Shown piece by piece: positions 33,282-64,000 of a DNA stretch of 64,000 nt. This stretch comes from an uncultured virus (IMG/VR IMGVR_UViG_3300028597_000015). Its lineage: Duplodnaviria; Heunggongvirae; Uroviricota; Caudoviricetes. The notes beneath the pieces were generated by a model. It was not told the DNA's origin. It ran no database searches and saw only the letters and a list, made by a program, of their open reading frames with translations. Where the stretch lies: the IMG/VR virus record IMGVR_UViG_3300028597_000015. The stretch is one strand, 5' to 3'. Made by a program: the position numbers and the translations under genes. How positions within the stretch are numbered: the first letter of the stretch is position 1; each line of letters begins with the position of its first letter.

Positions 33282-33319
33282 AGAGCCCCCCATCGGCTTC
33301 GGCCGGTGGGGGGCTCTTT
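33282..33319. terminator. Intrinsic terminator between convergent operons
   Basis: 16-bp stem AGAGCCCCCCATCGGC / GCCGGTGGGGGGCTCT with a C(UUCG)G tetraloop and a short T-tract. Confidence 0.85.
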
Positions 33320-34190: not shown

Positions 34191-34484
34191 TTAGTACCAC
34201 GCCTGGCACTGTGCCGTCGGATGCTCGCCGAACAGCCGACCGCAGTCCCGGCAGGGATGGCCGTTCGGCCACGCCTGCCGGTCCTGGGCGATCAGGTCGG
34301 CGGCGGTGTCGCCGGTCAGGTTGAGCATCGCCAGCATCCGGGTTTCGTCCCGCAGGGTGATCGTCACGTCCTCGCCGCCGCCCTCGGGGAACAGGTTCTC
34401 GCCGATGACCTTGACGGCGGTGAGCAACAGGTGCTCGACCAGTGAGCGCGGCGCGGTGGTCTCGATCTCGACGCTGAACTGCAT
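34191..34484 (-). CDS. Hypothetical Zn-binding protein
   Basis: CRDCG...EHP...C C-terminus. Confidence 0.6.
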   Translation of the reverse strand: MQFSVEIETTAPRSLVEHLLLTAVKVIGENLFPEGGGEDVTITLRDETRMLAMLNLTGDTAADLIAQDRQAWPNGHPCRDCGRLFGEHPTAQCQAWY

Positions 34485-36200: not shown

Positions 36201-36421
36201 TCGTCATCCTCCACGTCGACCACGTCGATGTAGCCCCGGATCTCCTCCTGGAGCGCGGCGCCCGCCACGCCGGGACGGGTGAAGGTGCCGACGAACGTCT
36301 CGCCGATGAACGCGCCGTAGAGACCGTCGCGCATGATGACCTCGCCGACCACGCCGTCCACGGTCAGCGTCCAGCGCTGCGGACCGGCCGGGGTCAACTC
36401 GGGGTAGACGATCGCCTTCAT
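36197..36421 (-). CDS. Hypothetical protein
   Basis: MKAIVYPELTP...; ATGA coupled. Confidence 0.55.
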   Translation of the reverse strand: MKAIVYPELTPAGPQRWTLTVDGVVGEVIMRDGLYGAFIGETFVGTFTRPGVAGAALQEEIRGYIDVVDVEDDE

Positions 36422-36594
36422 GAGGACACCCGCCGACCGTTGCGGGCGGGCTTGACGTTGATGTACTCGGTCAGCAGGCGGTTGATGACGGAGGTCATCG
36501 TCTCGCCGGTGGCGTCGGCCCGTTCCTTGGCCTGGTCCCACAGGTCGTCGGGAACACGGAAACTCCGGTTCGGGGTTTTGGGCTGGTTCGGCAT
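36418..36594 (-). CDS. Ribbon-helix-helix (Arc-like) DNA-binding protein
   Basis: TPNRSFRVPDDLWDQAKERADATGETMTSVINRLLTEY is a classic RHH pattern. GAAGGA RBS. Confidence 0.85.
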   Translation of the reverse strand: MPNQPKTPNRSFRVPDDLWDQAKERADATGETMTSVINRLLTEYINVKPARNGRRVSS

Positions 36595-36614
36595 GGCGGT
36601 CCTTCCGGGTAGGT

Positions 36615-36651
36615 GGTGTCTTGCACCACCATGCCACAGGTGCAAGACACC
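36615..36651. promoter_or_regulatory. 13-bp inverted repeat, candidate operator upstream of the RHH gene
   Basis: GGTGTCTTGCACC-N11-GGTGCAAGACACC, perfect dyad. Confidence 0.65.
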
Positions 36652-37105
36652 CAGCAACCTATTCATCCTCTCGGGTGAGCCGGTAGACGCTTGCGTGGTC
36701 CAGCAGGTCGGCGAACCGCCGGGCCTCTTGCGCCGTGTCGAACATGGCCGAGCCGAGGACGTGCCAGGGTTTCGCGGGGGGCGTGCCCCCGGAGCGGATC
36801 ACCGCGAACAGGACCGTCGGCGGGTCCGGGATCATCTCGGTCACGACGCCTCCCGCAGCGGTCGGTGGGGGTTGAGTTCGTCGGCCGGGCGCGGGTGATT
36901 CTGCGGCGGTGACGGGCGACCGACGCGCGCCTGCACGTACTCGCCGATCACCGCCCGGTCCTGTTCCTCGCGCAGGGCCTGGAGCAACCATTCATCGGTC
37001 ACCACTGCGCCACCCGCTCCCGTGCCCGCTGGGTCTCCAGCCGCCACCAGGACCACGCCACCCACAGGATCACCGTGATCCCGACGGCGGCGAACAACCG
37101 CAAGA

Positions 37106-42692: not shown

Positions 42693-44333
42693 ATGACACC
42701 ACTGAAGCGCCGGCAGACCCGCCGTGACCAGGACAAACGAGCCCAGGCCGCCGCCCAGCAGGCCGAGTTGACCGCCGTTCGACCCCTCGTTCCGTTGACC
42801 GAGGCCAACCCAAAACGGCGGACCGCGATGTACCTGCGGATCTCCATGGACAGCGATCTGTTGGGCGAGGGCATCGACCGGCAGCACTTCGAGTCGTGGG
42901 AGAAGGCCGAGGCCGAGGGGCTGGACGTAGTGGCCCTGTTCATCGACAACGACACCAGTGCCAGCACCGGCGAGTACCGGCCGGGCTTCGAGGACATGAA
43001 GGCGCTCGTTGCCGCCGGTGGCGTGGACTTCATCCTGTCGTGGTCGCAGGACCGGTTATTACGCAAGCCACGGCAGATCGAGGACTTCATCGATATCGCT
43101 ACCGATCACCCGATCAAGATCTATCAGGCAATCGAGGAAGCGACCGATCTGACCACCGCGTCGGGGCGGAAGGCGGCACGCGACCGGGCCGTCCAGGCGT
43201 CCTTCGAGACCGAGCGGAAAGCCGAACGCCAGCGCGCGCAAAGTCGTCAGCGCGCCCGTAAAGGCGTGACCCCGGTAACCGAATGCTTCGGTTACGACAT
43301 CATTCGGGATGAGAAAGGCCAGCCGCAGGCGGTCATCAATGCGGATGAGGCCAAGGTGGTCCGCGAGGTATTCGAGTGGTACGTCTCCGGGCTCGGCACG
43401 CACACCATCGCCCAGATGCTGAATGAACGCGGGCTGGTCAACTTGTGGAACAACCCGTGGAATCCGACATCGGTGCGGACGATGCTCCGGAATCCGCGCT
43501 ACATTGGCGAGCGGTGGCTCCAGAATTACCGGCGCCGGACCGACGGGACCAAGATCAAGGAAGTGACCTACTACGCCGAGGGCACCTGGGAACCGATCTT
43601 CACCGGCGACGACGTCGAGACATTGTTTCGCGAGGCCAATCGGCAGATGAAAGCCCGGCGCAAGTCAACCGGCACCAACGGCACGTCCCGGAAATGGCTG
43701 GGCACCGGCTTGTACATGTGCGTCCAGTGTGGCGGCACGGTCTCGGCGGGGCACCGCCCCCGGAAGAACGGGAATGAGGTCACCTACGATTGTCGCCCGC
43801 ATACGCATGTGACCCGTCCGGCCGCGAATGTCGACCTGCACGTCCGGCGCGTTGTGGCGGCATACGTCGCCCGGTACGGCGTGGGCGAACTGATCGCAGA
43901 CAAGGCCAGCGCCGACCAGAGTGCTGCGCTGAAAGAGGCCGAGGCGAAGATTGTCCGCAAACTGAGCCGGGTGGAATCCGATTACGACGACGAGATCCTG
44001 ACCGGCCCGGAGTACCGCCGGAAGAAGGATGATCTGAAGGCGGAACTGGAGACGGTCAGAGCCGATATCGCGGCGCTGGGACATTCCTCGGTGCTGTCCA
44101 TGCTGAACGGTTCGGCCGACCCGGCAGCGTTGTTCCTGGAGGCGCCGCTGGCCCTCCAGGCGGCGATCATCCGAGATCTGGGCACGGTCACCCTGACCAA
44201 GGGCAAGCGCGGTCATCGCCCGGCAAACTATTGGCTGCGCCCGGGGCACAAGTTCTCCGACACCATCCTGTTCCACTGGCGCTCGGGCCGGGAGATGGAC
44301 ATGACCGAGTTCGACATCCCGCTGGACGAGTAG
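42693..44333 (+). CDS. int: Large serine integrase (phiRv1-type)
   Basis: YLRIS catalytic Ser, DNDTSASTG..RPGF, DRLLR, recombinase domain, CVQCG Zn ribbon and coiled coil. Confidence 0.95.
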   Translation: MTPLKRRQTRRDQDKRAQAAAQQAELTAVRPLVPLTEANPKRRTAMYLRISMDSDLLGEGIDRQHFESWEKAEAEGLDVVALFIDNDTSASTGEYRPGFEDMKALVAAGGVDFILSWSQDRLLRKPRQIEDFIDIATDHPIKIYQAIEEATDLTTASGRKAARDRAVQASFETERKAERQRAQSRQRARKGVTPVTECFGYDIIRDEKGQPQAVINADEAKVVREVFEWYVSGLGTHTIAQMLNERGLVNLWNNPWNPTSVRTMLRNPRYIGERWLQNYRRRTDGTKIKEVTYYAEGTWEPIFTGDDVETLFREANRQMKARRKSTGTNGTSRKWLGTGLYMCVQCGGTVSAGHRPRKNGNEVTYDCRPHTHVTRPAANVDLHVRRVVAAYVARYGVGELIADKASADQSAALKEAEAKIVRKLSRVESDYDDEILTGPEYRRKKDDLKAELETVRADIAALGHSSVLSMLNGSADPAALFLEAPLALQAAIIRDLGTVTLTKGKRGHRPANYWLRPGHKFSDTILFHWRSGREMDMTEFDIPLDE

Positions 44334-45131: not shown

Positions 45132-45398
45132 TCACTCGTCGGTGGCGTAGGGCCAGGCCTCGGCCACCGCCGCCCGCTCCCGCACCGCCGCCTCCAGTTC
45201 CTCATCGGTGTGGGTGTCCAGGTGGTTCTGGATCGACTGGCGGCTGATGCAGAACAGGGCGACGTTCGGCGACACGGTCACCTTGATGTTGCTGTTCTCC
45301 GGCCGGAACATCCGGACGCCGGTGCCGATGGGCGAGTCACAGACCGGGCACCGGACCTGGACCACCAGGTCGGCGATCTTCAGCAGGTCGATGGTCAT
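45132..45398 (-). CDS. Zn-binding hypothetical protein
   Basis: CPVC...H..TH. Confidence 0.6.
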   Translation of the reverse strand: MTIDLLKIADLVVQVRCPVCDSPIGTGVRMFRPENSNIKVTVSPNVALFCISRQSIQNHLDTHTDEELEAAVRERAAVAEAWPYATDE

Positions 45399-45610
45399 GC
45401 CGGTCGGGACAACAGGGCCGCGATGGTGACCACCTGCTCGGCCGTCATCGGCGGTGCGGCATCGACCACCGATGCCGCGTCGTCGGAGATCCCGCGCAAC
45501 TCGATGTCCTCCGGTGATCCGGGTTCAACTCCCGGCGGGGTTTCCCCCCGGATCAACGCCAGGATGAACTGGGGATCGCGGGATCGTTCTTCGGTGATGT
45601 AGCCGGACAT
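45395..45610 (-). CDS. Candidate recombination directionality factor (phiRv1 Rv1584c-like)
   Basis: RSRDPQFILA...AAPPMTAEQ...AALLSRP matches the recalled pattern RSR..DPEFIAA...AAPPLTDEQR..LAELLRP. GGAGG RBS. Confidence 0.6.
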   Translation of the reverse strand: MSGYITEERSRDPQFILALIRGETPPGVEPGSPEDIELRGISDDAASVVDAAPPMTAEQVVTIAALLSRPA

Positions 45611-45653
45611 GGCGGGGCCTCCGAGGGGCACGTCGGATGGGCCGCGCCGCCCG

Positions 45654-45756
45654 CTGGCTTCCCCCGCCCGATGCGGGTTTGCGGTGCTGCGGTGTGTGGC
45701 TTTCGCGCAGAGGCCAAAGGACCCTAGCCGGGGGTCGGGAGTCGGGCTCGCTCCCG
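45654..45756 (-). ncRNA. Leader RNA element, left copy
   Basis: Three hairpins with loops CGAGCCCGA, CCGGCTA and CTCTGCGCGAAA, plus a conserved 3' segment. Confidence 0.65.
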
Positions 45757-45769
45757 TCGCTGGGTGGGA

Positions 45770-45799
45770 ACGGTAGTCACGAAACCGGGCACGGTGCAA
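45770..45799 (-). promoter_or_regulatory. Leftward SigA-type promoter
   Basis: TTGCAC-N18-TACCGT on the - strand, just upstream of the left RNA copy. Confidence 0.5.
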
Positions 45800-45867
45800 G
45801 GGCGATGTAAGATACGAATCCGTTCTCGTTGTGCCGCAGTATCTTTCAATCAATTTTCGCCGAGTGC

Positions 45868-45898
45868 TGGACAGCACCGGTGTCCATGGGGGTAACGT
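45868..45898 (+). promoter_or_regulatory. Rightward promoter candidate with overlapping dyad
   Basis: TGGACA...TAACGT (-10 TANNNT; spacer is a non-ideal 19 nt), with a TGGACA-N7-TGTCCA dyad. Confidence 0.4.
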
Positions 45899-45912
45899 CA
45901 CCGTCGACTTCG

Positions 45913-46016
45913 AGAGCGAGCCCGACTCTGGTCCCGGTCAGACCCTCACGGCCTCTGAGCGAAAGCCGTAGTACGTCACCAGTACCCCAAACGCGCATTC
46001 GGGCAGCGGAAGCCAG
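45913..46016 (+). ncRNA. Leader RNA element, right copy
   Basis: Loops CGAGCCCGA, CCGGTCA and CTCTGAGCGAAA, with different but complementary stems. Confidence 0.65.
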
Positions 46017-46157
46017 GGGACGGCGGTGGCAACCACATCCACCCGCGTAGGCGGGGCGGGCGTGCCGGTGCAGTTGTTCTGTACCGATCGCCCGTCCGGC
46101 AGGTCGACCCTGCGCGCGGTGGATGACCACCTGGTTGCTACCCCCATGGAGCCCCGC

Positions 46158-46454
46158 ATGAGCGACCCTTCCCCACCCCTCCGCCGGCACTGGGAGGACC
46201 ACCCCGACGCCGCCGCCGAGGCCGCCCGCCGTAGCTGGGCGAACACCCCCGACCGCACGGCGCGCACGGCGCCGGCCCGGGCCGCCCAACTGGCCCGCTA
46301 CCTCGATCAGGTCGACCCCGACCGGGTGTTGCCCGAGGACGAACGCGCCCGCCAGGTCGAACTGGCCCGTCGGGCGTGGTACGCGGCGATCGGTCGGCTC
46401 GGTGCCCGGGCCAATCGCGAGCGTCGGAACGGCAAGGCCGACCGTGCAGCCTGA
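46158..46454 (+). CDS. Basic protein typical of actinobacterial prophage-like elements
   Basis: SWANTPDRTARTAPAR...VDPDRVLP..ERAR motif. Confidence 0.75.
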   Translation: MSDPSPPLRRHWEDHPDAAAEAARRSWANTPDRTARTAPARAAQLARYLDQVDPDRVLPEDERARQVELARRAWYAAIGRLGARANRERRNGKADRAA

Positions 46455-59977: not shown

Positions 59978-60031
59978 CACCCAATGAACGTTTCAATCCG
60001 GGTCATTTCGCATTGCGAACTATCGGAGTAT

Positions 60032-60047
60032 TCGAATACTTGTTCGA
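60032..60047. promoter_or_regulatory. Second LexA-like box
   Basis: TCGAAT-ACTT-GTTCGA, one mismatch from consensus. Confidence 0.55.
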
Positions 60048-60134
60048 CCATTGAATTCGCGGCCGCCGCACGGCCAGGCCGGAAGATGATCATGAAAAAT
60101 GACCATTCCGCCGGCCTCCCATGATGATCTTGGT

Positions 60135-60207
60135 CGACCATTGTCGGGCAGGCTCGCGCCGTATTCAGTTGTCAATTCGCCCGACCATTTTTGGGCAGGC
60201 TCGCGCC
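60135..60207 (+). repeat. 26-bp direct repeat
   Basis: CGACCATTGTCGGGCAGGCTCGCGCC at 60135 and CGACCATTTTTGGGCAGGCTCGCGCC at 60182. Confidence 0.85.
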
Positions 60208-60374
60208 TACCTGAACAATGGTCGCCCGAAAATTCCGGGATGCGTCGATAGCGCCATCGGTCGACCATTGTTCGGCCGGTCCGGATGGCGCCATGGGTCA
60301 CGCGTGTTGGTGTCCTAGTAATCATGTAATCATGGCTTGTCAAGGGCAGCTACCGGGGCAGCTACCGCGCGGCA

Positions 60375-60421
60375 TGCCTTGCACCTAGTGATAGGGTGCA
60401 AGGCACACCACTACCGCGCGA
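60375..60421 (+). promoter_or_regulatory. Operator-like dyad plus conserved leader
   Basis: TGCCTTGCACC-N9-GGTGCAAGGCA; CACACCACTACCGCGCGA recurs at 62371-62388. Confidence 0.65.
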
Positions 60422-60442
60422 CCCATCCCGGGAGGATGCGAC

Positions 60443-61258
60443 ATGACGACTCACCACTACGTGACGCCAGACGGAACGCAATATCAGATATCGATCGATC
60501 GGGACGATGACGCCATGACTCCGCGCGATGCGGACAACGTGACGATCATGGTCACCCATGGTGGGAACATGATCAGTCCGGACCATGGCTACGTGAAAGA
60601 TTCCGAACTGCCGGATATTCCGAGTGAGTATGTCGGCGCGGGTCGCTACTCCGGTAATGTCGACATGCGACGCATCCGGAAATATGCGGCATTGTTCCTC
60701 CCGGATGTCATTGCGATCGTGGGTATCGATATCCGCCACGACTGGACGCCGACCCTGGCATTGTCCGATGACGATGAGGCAGACGGATTCATCGTCATCA
60801 CGCGCCGATCGTGGGATATGTGTATGGGTCCCGATACCGTCCCGACCATGGAACACTGCCGCGACATGATGCGGCAGGATATCGATGCCTATAACCGATA
60901 TGCGTCCGGTGAGTATGTGTCGTTCATTGTGGAACAGTTGACCGAATGGACACGCGCCGATACCGGTGAGACTCGCATGGAATGGGAGACGATCGAATCA
61001 TGCGGGTCAATCGATGATGAGGCCTACGCGTTGTCCGAAGCGGAATCATGTCTGCCGGAGGATGCGGTATCCAACGATATGGAATTAGAGTCGGACCCCG
61101 ACGATATCGATTCGCTCGATTGCGCGCGGGTCGGTTCGCATCATTCCGAAGATAGGGTGAGTGTCTATCATGGCACCATCGATCCCTACCGCATGTGTGG
61201 TTTCCACGCGTCGCAGGTCTCACCGGAATTCCTGGCGCGCGTTGCGGCAGGTGCGTGA
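60443..61258 (+). CDS. Acidic early hypothetical protein
   Basis: 271 aa, D/E-rich; GGAGG RBS; Y..Y..GE...F.VE...WETIESCG motif. Confidence 0.8.
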   Translation: MTTHHYVTPDGTQYQISIDRDDDAMTPRDADNVTIMVTHGGNMISPDHGYVKDSELPDIPSEYVGAGRYSGNVDMRRIRKYAALFLPDVIAIVGIDIRHDWTPTLALSDDDEADGFIVITRRSWDMCMGPDTVPTMEHCRDMMRQDIDAYNRYASGEYVSFIVEQLTEWTRADTGETRMEWETIESCGSIDDEAYALSEAESCLPEDAVSNDMELESDPDDIDSLDCARVGSHHSEDRVSVYHGTIDPYRMCGFHASQVSPEFLARVAAGA

Positions 61259-61260
61259 TC

Positions 61261-61800
61261 ATGTTGACTAACCACGTTTATGGTGACTGGAACCCTAGCG
61301 TGATCTACCGCGCCGAATCGTTCGCGCGCGAATGGAACGGATTCGCGGTACCGATCGTCACGCGGGAGACTCTGCGTAACATTGTCGCCGACTCACCCGA
61401 TTACTCGGTTGCGTTCGATTCCGACGGTATCGCGACAATTGATTACTCCGGCTCCGGATACGCGGTAATCACTCCGGACGCCAGGGGTCACTATGTGTGC
61501 GAATTCGGGTGGACATTCTACCGCGCCGACGATTCGGATGATGACTACATCCGCGCGTCAATCATCGATGCCATGCGGGTAGGTCTACAGGGTGAGGCAA
61601 TTCTAGGGATTGATATCCTCATCGATCGATTGCCAGCACTGGCCACGATGGCGCGCATGCTGCACTGGCAGGGACTTAACTACCGCGCGGCATGTGGCGC
61701 GGGTCGGAACGTACTCACTACCGGTGACGCAGGACAGGCAACGTGCGAGGCATGCCGCGCGGCATTCCGTCGGGAGTATGGCGCCGAACCGACGCCATAG
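61261..61800 (+). CDS. Early hypothetical protein
   Basis: WNGFAVP...GWTF, and C-terminal ACG...TCEAC. Confidence 0.75.
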   Translation: MLTNHVYGDWNPSVIYRAESFAREWNGFAVPIVTRETLRNIVADSPDYSVAFDSDGIATIDYSGSGYAVITPDARGHYVCEFGWTFYRADDSDDDYIRASIIDAMRVGLQGEAILGIDILIDRLPALATMARMLHWQGLNYRAACGAGRNVLTTGDAGQATCEACRAAFRREYGAEPTP

Positions 61801-61821
61801 CTCGACCCATCCGAACCGAAC

Positions 61822-61858
61822 CGACGGACCCGCTAGCGACCCGCTAGCGGGTCCGTCG
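61822..61858. terminator. 17-bp perfect hairpin
   Basis: CGACGGACCCGCTAGCG-ACC-CGCTAGCGGGTCCGTCG, downstream of the stop. Confidence 0.65.
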
Positions 61859-62409
61859 CGTATCCGGGGCAGGGTTACCCGCGCCGACGATTGCGCGCAT
61901 ACCCCTAAGGGGTACCGGAATCGGCCCGAATCGCTCTAGAGCGTCGAATGGGTGCAAGGCAGGGTGAGGACAGTCGGGCGGCATCCTGGCGTGCCTACGG
62001 ACCCGCTAGGCACCTTTACGGGGCATCCTGGCGTCATCCCATGGCGCCGATTGCGCCGAATGGGGCCGATTCGCGCCGAATCGGCCCGTCGGATGGGCGG
62101 AATGTCCGAATTTTTTCATGATCATTTGTAAACGATCATGGAATCGACTCGGTTGGCCTAGCAACCGAACCGACCATGATCACTACCGGTGACCGATGAC
62201 GCGTTATCGCAGGTACCGACGATGCGGCAGGGTCCGCCGGCACTTTTAGGTGACACTCGGCGGCCGCGCGCTCACTATGTGTGACGGACCTGGCCTGTCA
62301 CGCGCGGCCGCCGCTCGCACACATTCCGTAGTTTGTTGCAGGTGCCTTGCACCCATGGCACTATGGCGGACACACCACTACCGCGCGAACCGTCCGGGAG
62401 GACTACGCC

Positions 62410-62769
62410 ATGGAACTACCGCCACTACCTAGGTGCGATGCCCCGGGATGCCCTGGGCACCTAGGCAAATTTTCCGATTGCGTGACCGAAGCGCTTTACA
62501 CACTCACGCTCGATTCGGCCGACGAAACCACCGGTAACGCTATCGACTGGCACGCGCATTATTCCCTCATCATCCTGCCGGAATCGGAATCGGTCACCAT
62601 CGATGACGGTTCACCCGACGAGCGCGCGGTAATCGTTCCGTCCGGTAACTGGATTATCGAGTGTCTGTCATCCGGTCTGGTGACCGCGTGGCAATCCGAC
62701 GATTACGTTGCCGAATGGGATCGAATCGAATCGGCATACTCGGAATTTTTCGGCGAGGATGACGAATGA
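62410..62769 (+). CDS. Acidic early hypothetical protein
   Basis: GGAGG RBS; GKFSD...ADETTG...; acidic C-terminus. Confidence 0.75.
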   Translation: MELPPLPRCDAPGCPGHLGKFSDCVTEALYTLTLDSADETTGNAIDWHAHYSLIILPESESVTIDDGSPDERAVIVPSGNWIIECLSSGLVTAWQSDDYVAEWDRIESAYSEFFGEDDE

Positions 62770-62861
62770 CACCATCCGAAGCGCGCGCCATGCTTGCATG
62801 GTTGGCGCGGCTGGAATCTGAAACCTCCCGACCCGCTATCACCCGATAAGGACACAGAACA

Positions 62862-63329
62862 ATGAACGCACGTACCGCCATGGCTGCCGCAATCGCTGAG
62901 GTTTCCGAATGGAATGCCTATATGTTGGCATCGTCCGATCGCGCCGATTGTGCCTCACCCGATTCGCTCGAATCGGACGGGGCACGCATGTTGACCTTCG
63001 TCCGGGATGCCACGCTGGAAAGAATGGGTGATTGCGATGATCCGACGGATATCCGTCGGGTTATGGACGATGCTACTTACGAGATAGCGGATAGTGCCCC
63101 GTCGGTTTACACACATGCGGCATGGTCACAGTTTGTGGACCTAGGCGCATTCTATGAGGATATTACCGAGTATGGCGATATCGACGGCGAAAACATCACG
63201 CGCGACGTCGCTATGCGTGCGCTTTACATGATTGCCGATCGTCTCGCGCGTGCCATCGTCGAATATGTCGCGGACGCAATCGAATCGGCGGACGACGACG
63301 ACGACGACGACGATTCCGACGACAACTAA
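62862..63329 (+). CDS. Ocr-like (T7 gp0.3-like) DNA-mimic anti-restriction protein
   Basis: DDATYEIADSAPSVYTHAAWSQFVD parallels the recalled Ocr segment [22 protein letters not shown]. Very acidic, with a poly-Asp tail. Confidence 0.7.
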   Translation: MNARTAMAAAIAEVSEWNAYMLASSDRADCASPDSLESDGARMLTFVRDATLERMGDCDDPTDIRRVMDDATYEIADSAPSVYTHAAWSQFVDLGAFYEDITEYGDIDGENITRDVAMRALYMIADRLARAIVEYVADAIESADDDDDDDDSDDN

Positions 63330-63376
63330 CCCAACCATCCGACCATCCGACCCAACCAACCAAAAGGGGCACCATC

Positions 63377-64000
63377 ATGACTGATATCCGCTACGCCGAC
63401 CATGCCGTTACTCTGTTCTACGTCTCGCCCGACGCATTCCGCTATGGTGCGTTTGGGTGGCGCGATATGGAACCTGCCGATCGTCATTACTCCGATGTCA
63501 CCATCCCGGTATTGTTGGTCAACGATACTTCATACTCCGATTATTCCGGGAGTATGTATAACCGTTCTAACAATCGTGTCCTCATGGGTGACGGATGCCG
63601 CGTGTTGCGAGAGGTGACCGGTGACTATTCGTCAAGCGCGCTCGTGTTGACTCTGCCGCGTGCCGTGGTCCGTCGCTTGACCCGCGCGGGTCGCAATGCG
63701 TCGGCGCGCATGGCATGCGAGGCACTGGCGGACATGATCGATGCGGATACGTTGGATGACGCGCGTGCCATGGTGTGCGACGTAATCGCAGGTCTCGCCG
63801 ATTATCCCATCATCGATGAATCCGATTACTCGGAGCTGGAATCGGAATACATCTACAGTGACGAATCGTGGGAGACTGTCCGGGATGATATGGCGCTAGC
63901 GGTCGCGCGGGAGATTACCGGGGCGAATGGGCGCGATGCGTGGGAATTCGCAGGACTCATGAAGGATGATCCGACCGAATCGGCATCGTTCCGCGCGTGG
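63377..64000 (+). CDS. Acidic early protein (partial, runs off the window)
   Basis: Read by hand: MTDIRYADH...SDYSGS...LADYPIIDESDYSELESE...; no stop before 64000. Confidence 0.7.
   Translation, partial: MTDIRYADHAVTLFYVSPDAFRYGAFGWRDMEPADRHYSDVTIPVLLVNDTSYSDYSGSMYNRSNNRVLMGDGCRVLREVTGDYSSSALVLTLPRAVVRRLTRAGRNASARMACEALADMIDADTLDDARAMVCDVIAGLADYPIIDESDYSELESEYIYSDESWETVRDDMALAVAREITGANGRDAWEFAGLMKDDPTESASFRAW

Follow-up and report, generated by a model that had tools for sequence, protein, structure and literature searches.

EAR of Bacillus is a cis-acting processive antiterminator RNA. Early-gene regulation in actinophages is, to our knowledge, known almost wholly as the work of DNA-binding repressors. 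In the temperate phage HK022, according to the passages on put in PMC9378689, the PL and PR promoters are each followed by one of two RNAs that resemble each other, putL and putR, of ~70 nt with two long stem-loops. The put RNAs suppress terminators in cis without protein factors and bind the beta' zinc-binding domain of RNA polymerase. In lambda, the account of the nutL-N region in PMC5725501 places nutL ~200 bp ahead of N and describes the spacer between them as highly structured and acted on by RNase III; the nut site itself consists of a short single-stranded BoxA and one BoxB hairpin linked by a spacer (PMC2800207). In such systems a phage-encoded, arginine-rich antiterminator binds the hairpin. 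The leader RNA canT of Tn916, as presented in the sections of PMC11658703 devoted to it, is mobile-element-encoded, orientation-specific and proposed to carry polymerase through terminators. At the level of DNA, stoperators appear in the corresponding part of PMC9283540 as short asymmetric sites, many per mycobacteriophage genome. The locus analysed here lies in a window of 64,000 nt, by which we mean the whole stretch of DNA under study. Like HK022 putL/putR, it would place two related copies of a multi-helix RNA, whose function would depend on its fold, in the leaders of divergent early operons, with promoters that we infer here, and the element is probably a structured leader RNA.

An inverted pair of elements between two divergent operons

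The window has the appearance of a temperate, siphovirus-type phage genome of high GC content (67.5%), assembled from soil metagenomes. Its GC content drops to 58% in 60001-64000, compared with 64 to 73% elsewhere, and the low-GC part may be a different module or the phage edge. A 16-bp hairpin (33282-33317, 94% complementary, 4-nt loop), located 24 nt past the end of a long rightward structural ORF (33258) and before leftward genes ending at 34191, is likely the terminator in that gap. Two operons diverge from a gap of ~550 bp (45611-46157), which holds the twin element; the leftward one is only 1.2 kb long. The rightward block encodes a 98-aa phrog_2842 protein, a ParB-like protein, an exonuclease, a primase-polymerase/helicase and a C5 methyltransferase. 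For the 98-aa gene, the start at 46158 was favoured over a GTG at 46026 because the N-termini of its homologs are short. Its product carries 19 Arg and has a pI of 10.9, arginine richness being common in high-GC genomes, and in the protein atlas it fell only into unnamed Actinomycetota clusters.

On the leftward side, the label "RDF/repressor operon" given in the preliminary description has no basis, as the four proteins match no Pfam and no PHROG family; the 174-aa protein is an orphan whose search returned only itself. An Arc-like repressor homolog (phrog_6506, E = 1e-17) is encoded at 36418-36666 on the minus strand, some 9 kb away from the twin leaders. The leftward cluster to which it belongs also encodes several small DNA-binding proteins of zinc-finger or Myb-like type, and the immunity repressor may lie in this cluster rather than in the operon adjoining the element. 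Within the 71-aa leftward gene, 45488-45558 (+) holds a 47-bp imperfect palindrome (arms 45512-45534 and 45536-45558) that includes a perfect tRNA T-arm-like CCGGGTTCAACTCCCGG with an acceptor-like tail, and the tRNA-like mascRNA model of Rfam matches there with 24.8 bits (E = 0.016). This palindrome may represent an attP-type site or simply form a hairpin within the gene; a tRNA-derived attP was rejected, since aragorn calls no tRNA and the 22-nt pattern occurs in 0 of 401 Actinomycetota genomes.

Table 1. Coordinates of the divergent operons, the two copies of the element with their predicted helices, and the neighbouring features
Feature	Position	Strand	Detail
Large serine integrase	42693-44333	+	Family searches
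Leftward operon	45610->44417	-	Four small genes (71, 88, 174, 65 aa)
Leftward operon, first gene (71 aa)	45395..45610	-	ATG at 45610
Leader A, 13-bp hairpin	45611..45648	-	Covers RBS GGAGG 45622->45618; ends just before ATG 45610
Copy A	45651..45756 (5' end 45756)	-	Covariance model 127.5 bits
Copy A, H1	45756-45751/45741-45736	-	Loop CGAGCCCGA
Copy A, H2	45735-45732/45724-45721	-	Loop CCGGCTA
Copy A, H3	45716-45713/45700-45697	-	Loop CTCTGCGCGAAA
Copy A, H5	45684-45681/45654-45651	-	
Copy A, H4	45677-45675/45664-45662	-	Loop GCATCGGGCG
Central divergent promoter region (putative)	45757..45910	.	Sequence reading and composition; GC falls to 53%
Palindrome GCACGGTGC	45789-45797		Read from sequence
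Outward-facing TATCTT hexamers (alternative)	45814->45809; 45840-45845	-; +	35 to 50 nt further in
Palindrome TGGACA-N7-TGTCCA	45868-45886		Read from sequence
Copy B	45911..46019	+	Covariance model 130.9 bits
Copy B, H1 core	45913-45916/45926-45929	+	
Copy B, H2	45930-45933/45941-45944	+	Loop CCGGTCA
Copy B, H3	45948-45952/45965-45969	+	Loop CTCTGAGCGAAA
Copy B, H5	45985-45988/46016-46019	+	
Copy B, H4	45992-45994/46006-46008	+	Loop GCATTCGGGCA
Leader B, long imperfect hairpin	46022..46145	+	124 nt; ~49-bp stem; apex loop UUGUU 46074-46078
Rightward operon, first gene (98 aa)	46158..46454	+	phrog_2842 (unknown function); RBS GGAG 46148-46151
Rightward early/replication operon		+	~12.6 kb; starts with the 98-aa gene

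The back-to-back inverted repeat noticed in the preliminary description is present at the inter-operon gap, where its two copies flank a 154-bp AT-richer region (45757..45910). Over an alignment of 114 columns, 79 of the 105 ungapped columns are identical ("mean column identity" 85%). Identity amounts to 80/109 columns inside the element versus 29/53 upstream and 13/25 downstream, the flanks of the leaders being at the level of alignment noise. The repeat itself is beyond chance: the pattern GAGCCCGA-N20-45-CTCTGNGCGAAAGCC has exactly two matches in the window and none in 100 shuffles, and a covariance model run over the 64 kb finds the two copies alone (131 and 127 bits), with a next best score of 14.6. 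The copies are non-coding. A protein-coding duplication was rejected, since the frame shifts from one conserved block to the next through indels of 2, 4 and 1 nt, and the open frames across the copies have a GC3 of 0.58 to 0.67 (GC2 0.68 to 0.70), below the 0.78 to 0.97 of the neighbouring genes. Each copy is situated between the sole possible promoter region and the first gene of its operon. The twin element is genuine and unusual, and it seems to be unique.

In the centre, the -10-like hexamers that had been pointed out earlier, TACCGT (45775->45770, -) and TAACGT (45893-45898, +), are indeed found 14 to 15 nt upstream of the copies. The TATCTT hexamers, candidate alternative -10 elements for both promoters, lie within the inverted repeat TGTAAGATA/TATCTTTCA (45806-45848), and the central palindromes are candidate operators. 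Scans of 45300-46400 with a strict sigma-70 consensus and with a terminator consensus returned zero promoters and zero terminators, and the 12 terminators found downstream are no clear excess over the 6.4 +/- 2.9 expected. Both first genes have a Shine-Dalgarno sequence and neither has a TANNNT hexamer directly upstream, which suggests that the promoters lie in the 154-bp centre and that the copies are transcribed as leader sequence.

The conservation between the copies falls into blocks of 15, 9, 9 and 8 nt, and it is symmetrical about the dip in GC to 53%. Such a layout could also be expected of double-stranded binding sites, either for a phage regulator, as operators or roadblocks, or for a replication initiator, in which case large inverted repeats would flank an AT-richer unwinding region. 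Mycobacteriophage repressors halt elongation at sites in transcribed DNA, as related in the part of PMC9283540 on these sites. The blocks, however, are absent from the rest of the window when up to three mismatches are allowed, unlike stoperators, and a dispersed operator family was rejected on the ground that they occur in the two copies only. Moreover, the short palindromes of the central region make better operator candidates, and the GC skew has no clear switch here. We deem a DNA-level role unlikely.

Predicted fold of the two copies

Both copies are able to form the same five helices. Helices H1, H2 and H3, proposed in the preliminary description, were all recovered with the sequences that it quoted, and two nested 3' helices were added by means of RNAalifold and inspection, each with one compensatory pair: H5 reads CCGC/GCGG in copy A versus CCCC/GGGG in copy B, and H4 reads CCC/GGG versus CGC/GCG. 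In this 3' domain, H5 encloses AAA, H4 and GAAGCCA, and the AAA/GAAGCCA internal loop is conserved. In the MAFFT alignment, 97.5% of the cells of the 21 named pairs are able to pair and five pairs are changed on both sides, whereas sliding the partners by 1 to 3 columns reduces pairing to 35 to 46% with no compensatory pair. Moving one 2-nt gap brings H2 into register (ACCC/GGGT in A versus GGTC/GACC in B, three compensatory pairs), and RNAalifold on this gap-shifted alignment returns all five helices.

The motifs GCCCGA in loop 1 and TCGGGC in the 3' part, from which a pseudoknot had been suggested, are likewise present in both copies. As partners of a loop 1/loop 4 pseudoknot they are invariant, hence without covariation, and their pairing competes with local pairs predicted by RNAalifold. 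In either copy the two motifs also lie in inverted orientation at a distance of 75 to 79 bp, which would suit a DNA-level element as well. In addition, all stem pairs of the element are Watson-Crick and therefore give no information on which strand matters, the helices being equally possible as cruciforms. On the other hand, a protein site in DNA fails to explain segments that have diverged and yet are self-complementary, as in the two versions of H2.

How far the shared fold is supported depends on the null model, since the comparison concerns two sequences, paralogs in one genome, and the helices were picked after viewing both copies. With the structure fixed in advance, the probability of at least five compensatory pairs is 2.5e-5 and that of at most one broken pair is 0.0018. 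When helices are chosen post hoc, a neutral drift simulated from copy A reaches the observed six compensatory pairs in stacks of at least 4 bp in only 4/3000 cases, and the observed count in stacks of at least 3 bp in 152/3000; shuffling the columns does so in 77/2000 and 255/2000 cases, respectively, so that p spans 2.5e-5 to 0.13 across the null models. The alifold z score is -0.9 with the unedited MAFFT alignment (175/1000 shuffles as good) and -2.06 with the gap-shifted one (25/1000). Taken singly, the copies are no more stable than their shuffles (z +0.55 to +1.41), and the shared structure is not the MFE, at -25.9 versus -41.6 for copy A and -18.8 versus -32.0 for copy B. These two-sequence statistics are moderate and suggestive, and we regard the shared fold as likely.

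The same figures bear on another explanation of the pair, namely an inverted duplication of a promoter-proximal leader that drifts without specific function. Its helices would be hairpins that arose by chance at 68% GC and that template switching between the arms during replication keeps perfect. The copies fold no better than random GC-rich sequence, the nulls that allow for post hoc choice of helices give only marginal results, and no relative carrying the element was found in the searches described below. Template switching, in the portion of the work that we cite for it (bioRxiv 10.1101/2021.04.15.439925 / PMC8794818), can make and maintain hairpins with apparent compensatory changes. Drift would nevertheless not be expected to diverge so unevenly: differing columns number 5/39 in hairpin loops, 15/42 in stems and 15/33 in other unpaired positions, and the contrast between loops and everything else (30/75) is significant by Fisher's test (p = 0.003). 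Nor would it readily give seven both-side changes, as counted with the shifted gap, in five separate helices with a single broken pair, or the same order of element, hairpin, RBS and gene on both sides, and few neutral simulations (4/3000) match the statistic for stacks of at least 4 bp. We consider drift alone a doubtful account of the element.

Search for relatives

The preliminary description did not recognise the element as a described motif, and Rfam gave no match at the gathering threshold in the whole window. In 45400-46300, at E <= 10, the sole match overlapping a copy was a 12.4-bit hit to a vertebrate lncRNA model. The suggestion of a ribozyme-like fold found no support, with no known ribozyme family matched at E <= 10, and we rejected a known riboswitch or ribozyme on the absence of any such match even at that threshold. 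A word search of open-access papers did not find an actinophage leader RNA of this kind, which leaves its absence unproven.

When we inspected other sequences, blastn and megablast against phage records, as well as tblastn with the 142-aa and 71-aa neighbours, gave nothing or chance matches, and the ParB-like neighbour was matched by 89 records, all below 60% identity (best 40.6%). Among viral contigs (IMG/VR), one pattern search gave no match and another 14 loci, all unrelated coding DNA; further patterns gave 1 and 24 loci, with a best covariance model score of 14 bits. Pattern matches at 20 loci in genome contigs (one genome per prokaryote species) and at 65 loci in JGI metagenome contigs were also collected, and none of these 85 loci had more than one of three further motifs. 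The covariance model, which the preliminary description had envisaged running beyond the window, yielded nothing credible in 302 Actinomycetota genomes: it gave a single 28.6-bit match, inside a 648-aa ORF, in one set of 151 genomes, and none in 151 genomes of the family with the closest terminase (55% identity). The genome that holds this terminase lacks the early genes, and the nearest record in the collection, G001, does not cover 40-56 kb. The best score was 10.8 bits in L001 and four IMG/VR loci where the 98-aa gene has homologs. One viral contig (L103, 1600-1780) combines a homolog of the 98-aa gene with a classical divergent switch, built from repeats of the motif TTGACAG...TAGGCAC together with a repressor-like gene directed leftward and an HTH gene directed rightward, and has no twin leader element.

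We also inspected 24 sequencing runs, all of the DNA-type metagenome kind. Twelve soil runs contain at least 37% of the words sampled from the stretch, a share that reaches half or more in seven. Four runs with a lower share provided short pieces only, none of which spans 45811-45951, and no natural variants of the element were obtained from them; the three longest contigs are identical to the stretch bar a 1-nt deletion at 46074. This deletion, in the apex loop of the leader B hairpin, occurs in one contig of run X14 (depth 3.1) and, if real, argues against translation of 46026-46157.

Downstream hairpins, possible mechanisms and comparison with known systems

What is new here is the anatomy downstream of the element, with a long hairpin in the rightward leader (leader B) and an RBS-covering hairpin in the leftward one (leader A). 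The stretch 46016-46160 of leader B has an MFE of -90.2 kcal/mol (z -5.56), and none of 200 shuffles folds as well. Its fold comprises 53 pairs, 4 of them G-U, and because of these G-U pairs the sense strand is 12.5 kcal/mol better than the antisense, which reaches only -77.7. The hairpin stops 3 nt short of the GGAG that serves the 98-aa gene. Leader A is without a long hairpin, which appears as a gap of ~100 nt in the alignment, and its own hairpin (-25.9 kcal/mol, z -0.96) is not significant alone. The order element-hairpin-RBS-gene is kept on both arms.

In the MFE structure of leader B, the 3' strand of H5 (GGGG, 46016-46019) has a different partner, the CCCC at 46152-46155 that separates the RBS from the ATG. 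Such a pairing would be in keeping with a translation or attenuation switch, in which the element responds to a bound metabolite, phage protein or host protein and gates translation of the first gene in each operon, the 3' strand of H5 competing with a downstream hairpin that covers or abuts the RBS. The 13-bp hairpin over GGAGG in leader A is compatible with this arrangement, as are the conserved unpaired nucleotides of the hairpin loops and of the AAA/GAAGCCA internal loop. The presence of two copies also fits riboswitches, for which a genome normally has the same aptamer twice. However, the Rfam searches gave no riboswitch, the distance from element to RBS differs widely (~30 nt in A versus ~130 nt in B), the leader A hairpin neither is significant nor overlaps H5, and metabolite sensors are not usually found in one genome alone. 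We judge a switch of this type quite unlikely. As an alternative to antitermination, a twin ligand-sensing leader might couple both early operons to one host signal.

A duplex of ~49 bp is a classical RNase III-type substrate, which the duplex of leader B resembles, and given the hexamers TACCGT and TAACGT the element would start within ~5 to 15 nt of where the transcript probably begins. The leaders might act in processing and stability, with 5' hairpins that shield both early mRNAs from 5'-end-dependent decay and with RNase III cutting the leader B duplex, so that leader and first gene are uncoupled. Lambda provides a precedent in the action of RNase III on the structured nutL-N spacer, according to the same account of that region (PMC5725501). 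Protective hairpins, though, need neither conserved loops nor five helices, and leader A has no long duplex; of the mechanisms discussed here we find this one the least probable.

We prefer to read the element as a cis-acting structured leader RNA common to both early operons, to which, judging from its sequence and layout, we assign a probability of about 0.5. On this reading, the two copies would be transcribed as the 5' ends of both divergent early mRNAs, and each would fold into the same ~107-nt RNA with adjacent H1 and H2, then H3, a hairpin with a conserved 12-nt loop, and a 3' H5/H4 domain. The anatomy of both arms, in which the element comes first, with conserved loops and free stems, and is followed by a hairpin and the first gene, suggests one shared partner that acts after initiation: the conserved loops would be its recognition surface, and both early operons would be controlled together. 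The single most likely mechanism, and still a tentative one, is put/nut-like antitermination, ranked first because the layout resembles HK022 putL/putR and lambda nutL. The folded leader would then stay with the elongating RNA polymerase or recruit a factor to it, and the polymerase would pass the 46022-46145 hairpin and continue through the 12.6-kb operon. By analogy, and with similar reserve, the element may serve an actinobacterial phage as a processive antiterminator RNA, made from both divergent early promoters, with a fold unrelated to HK022 put, and working alone or with the arginine-rich product of the first gene. The leftward operon, at 1.2 kb, offers little reason for processive antitermination. 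Antitermination of the put/nut kind, the translation or attenuation switch and the processing module all fall within the general claim of a functional leader RNA, and it is to this claim that the even odds refer.

Should the element prove functional, a new RNA fold would act on both arms of a phage early switch once transcription has begun, and high-GC bacteria would gain a compact part with which to control read-through or gating. As a drifting duplication and no more, the pair would be a caution that two paralogs of 68% GC can show many chance "compensatory" pairs.

Among the systems described, mycobacteriophage stoperators share with the element the presence of conserved sites in transcribed DNA downstream of actinophage early promoters; unlike them, the element consists of two long copies. 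Both canT and EAR are single copies in Firmicutes, whereas here there are two. Compared with HK022 put, the element is longer (~106 to 109 nt), has five short helices and belongs to a phage whose host would be an actinobacterium-like high-GC organism rather than E. coli; by size and helix number it is not in the put family, put having been compared by its published description. It differs from nut in being a five-helix domain, no part of which shows the simple two-part layout of BoxA and BoxB. The 98-aa protein, unlike lambda N, is assigned to a family of unknown function and has homologs in four IMG/VR loci without the element. Leader B nonetheless follows the same order as lambda nutL/N, with a putative promoter, a conserved RNA element, a structured spacer and a small arginine-rich first gene.
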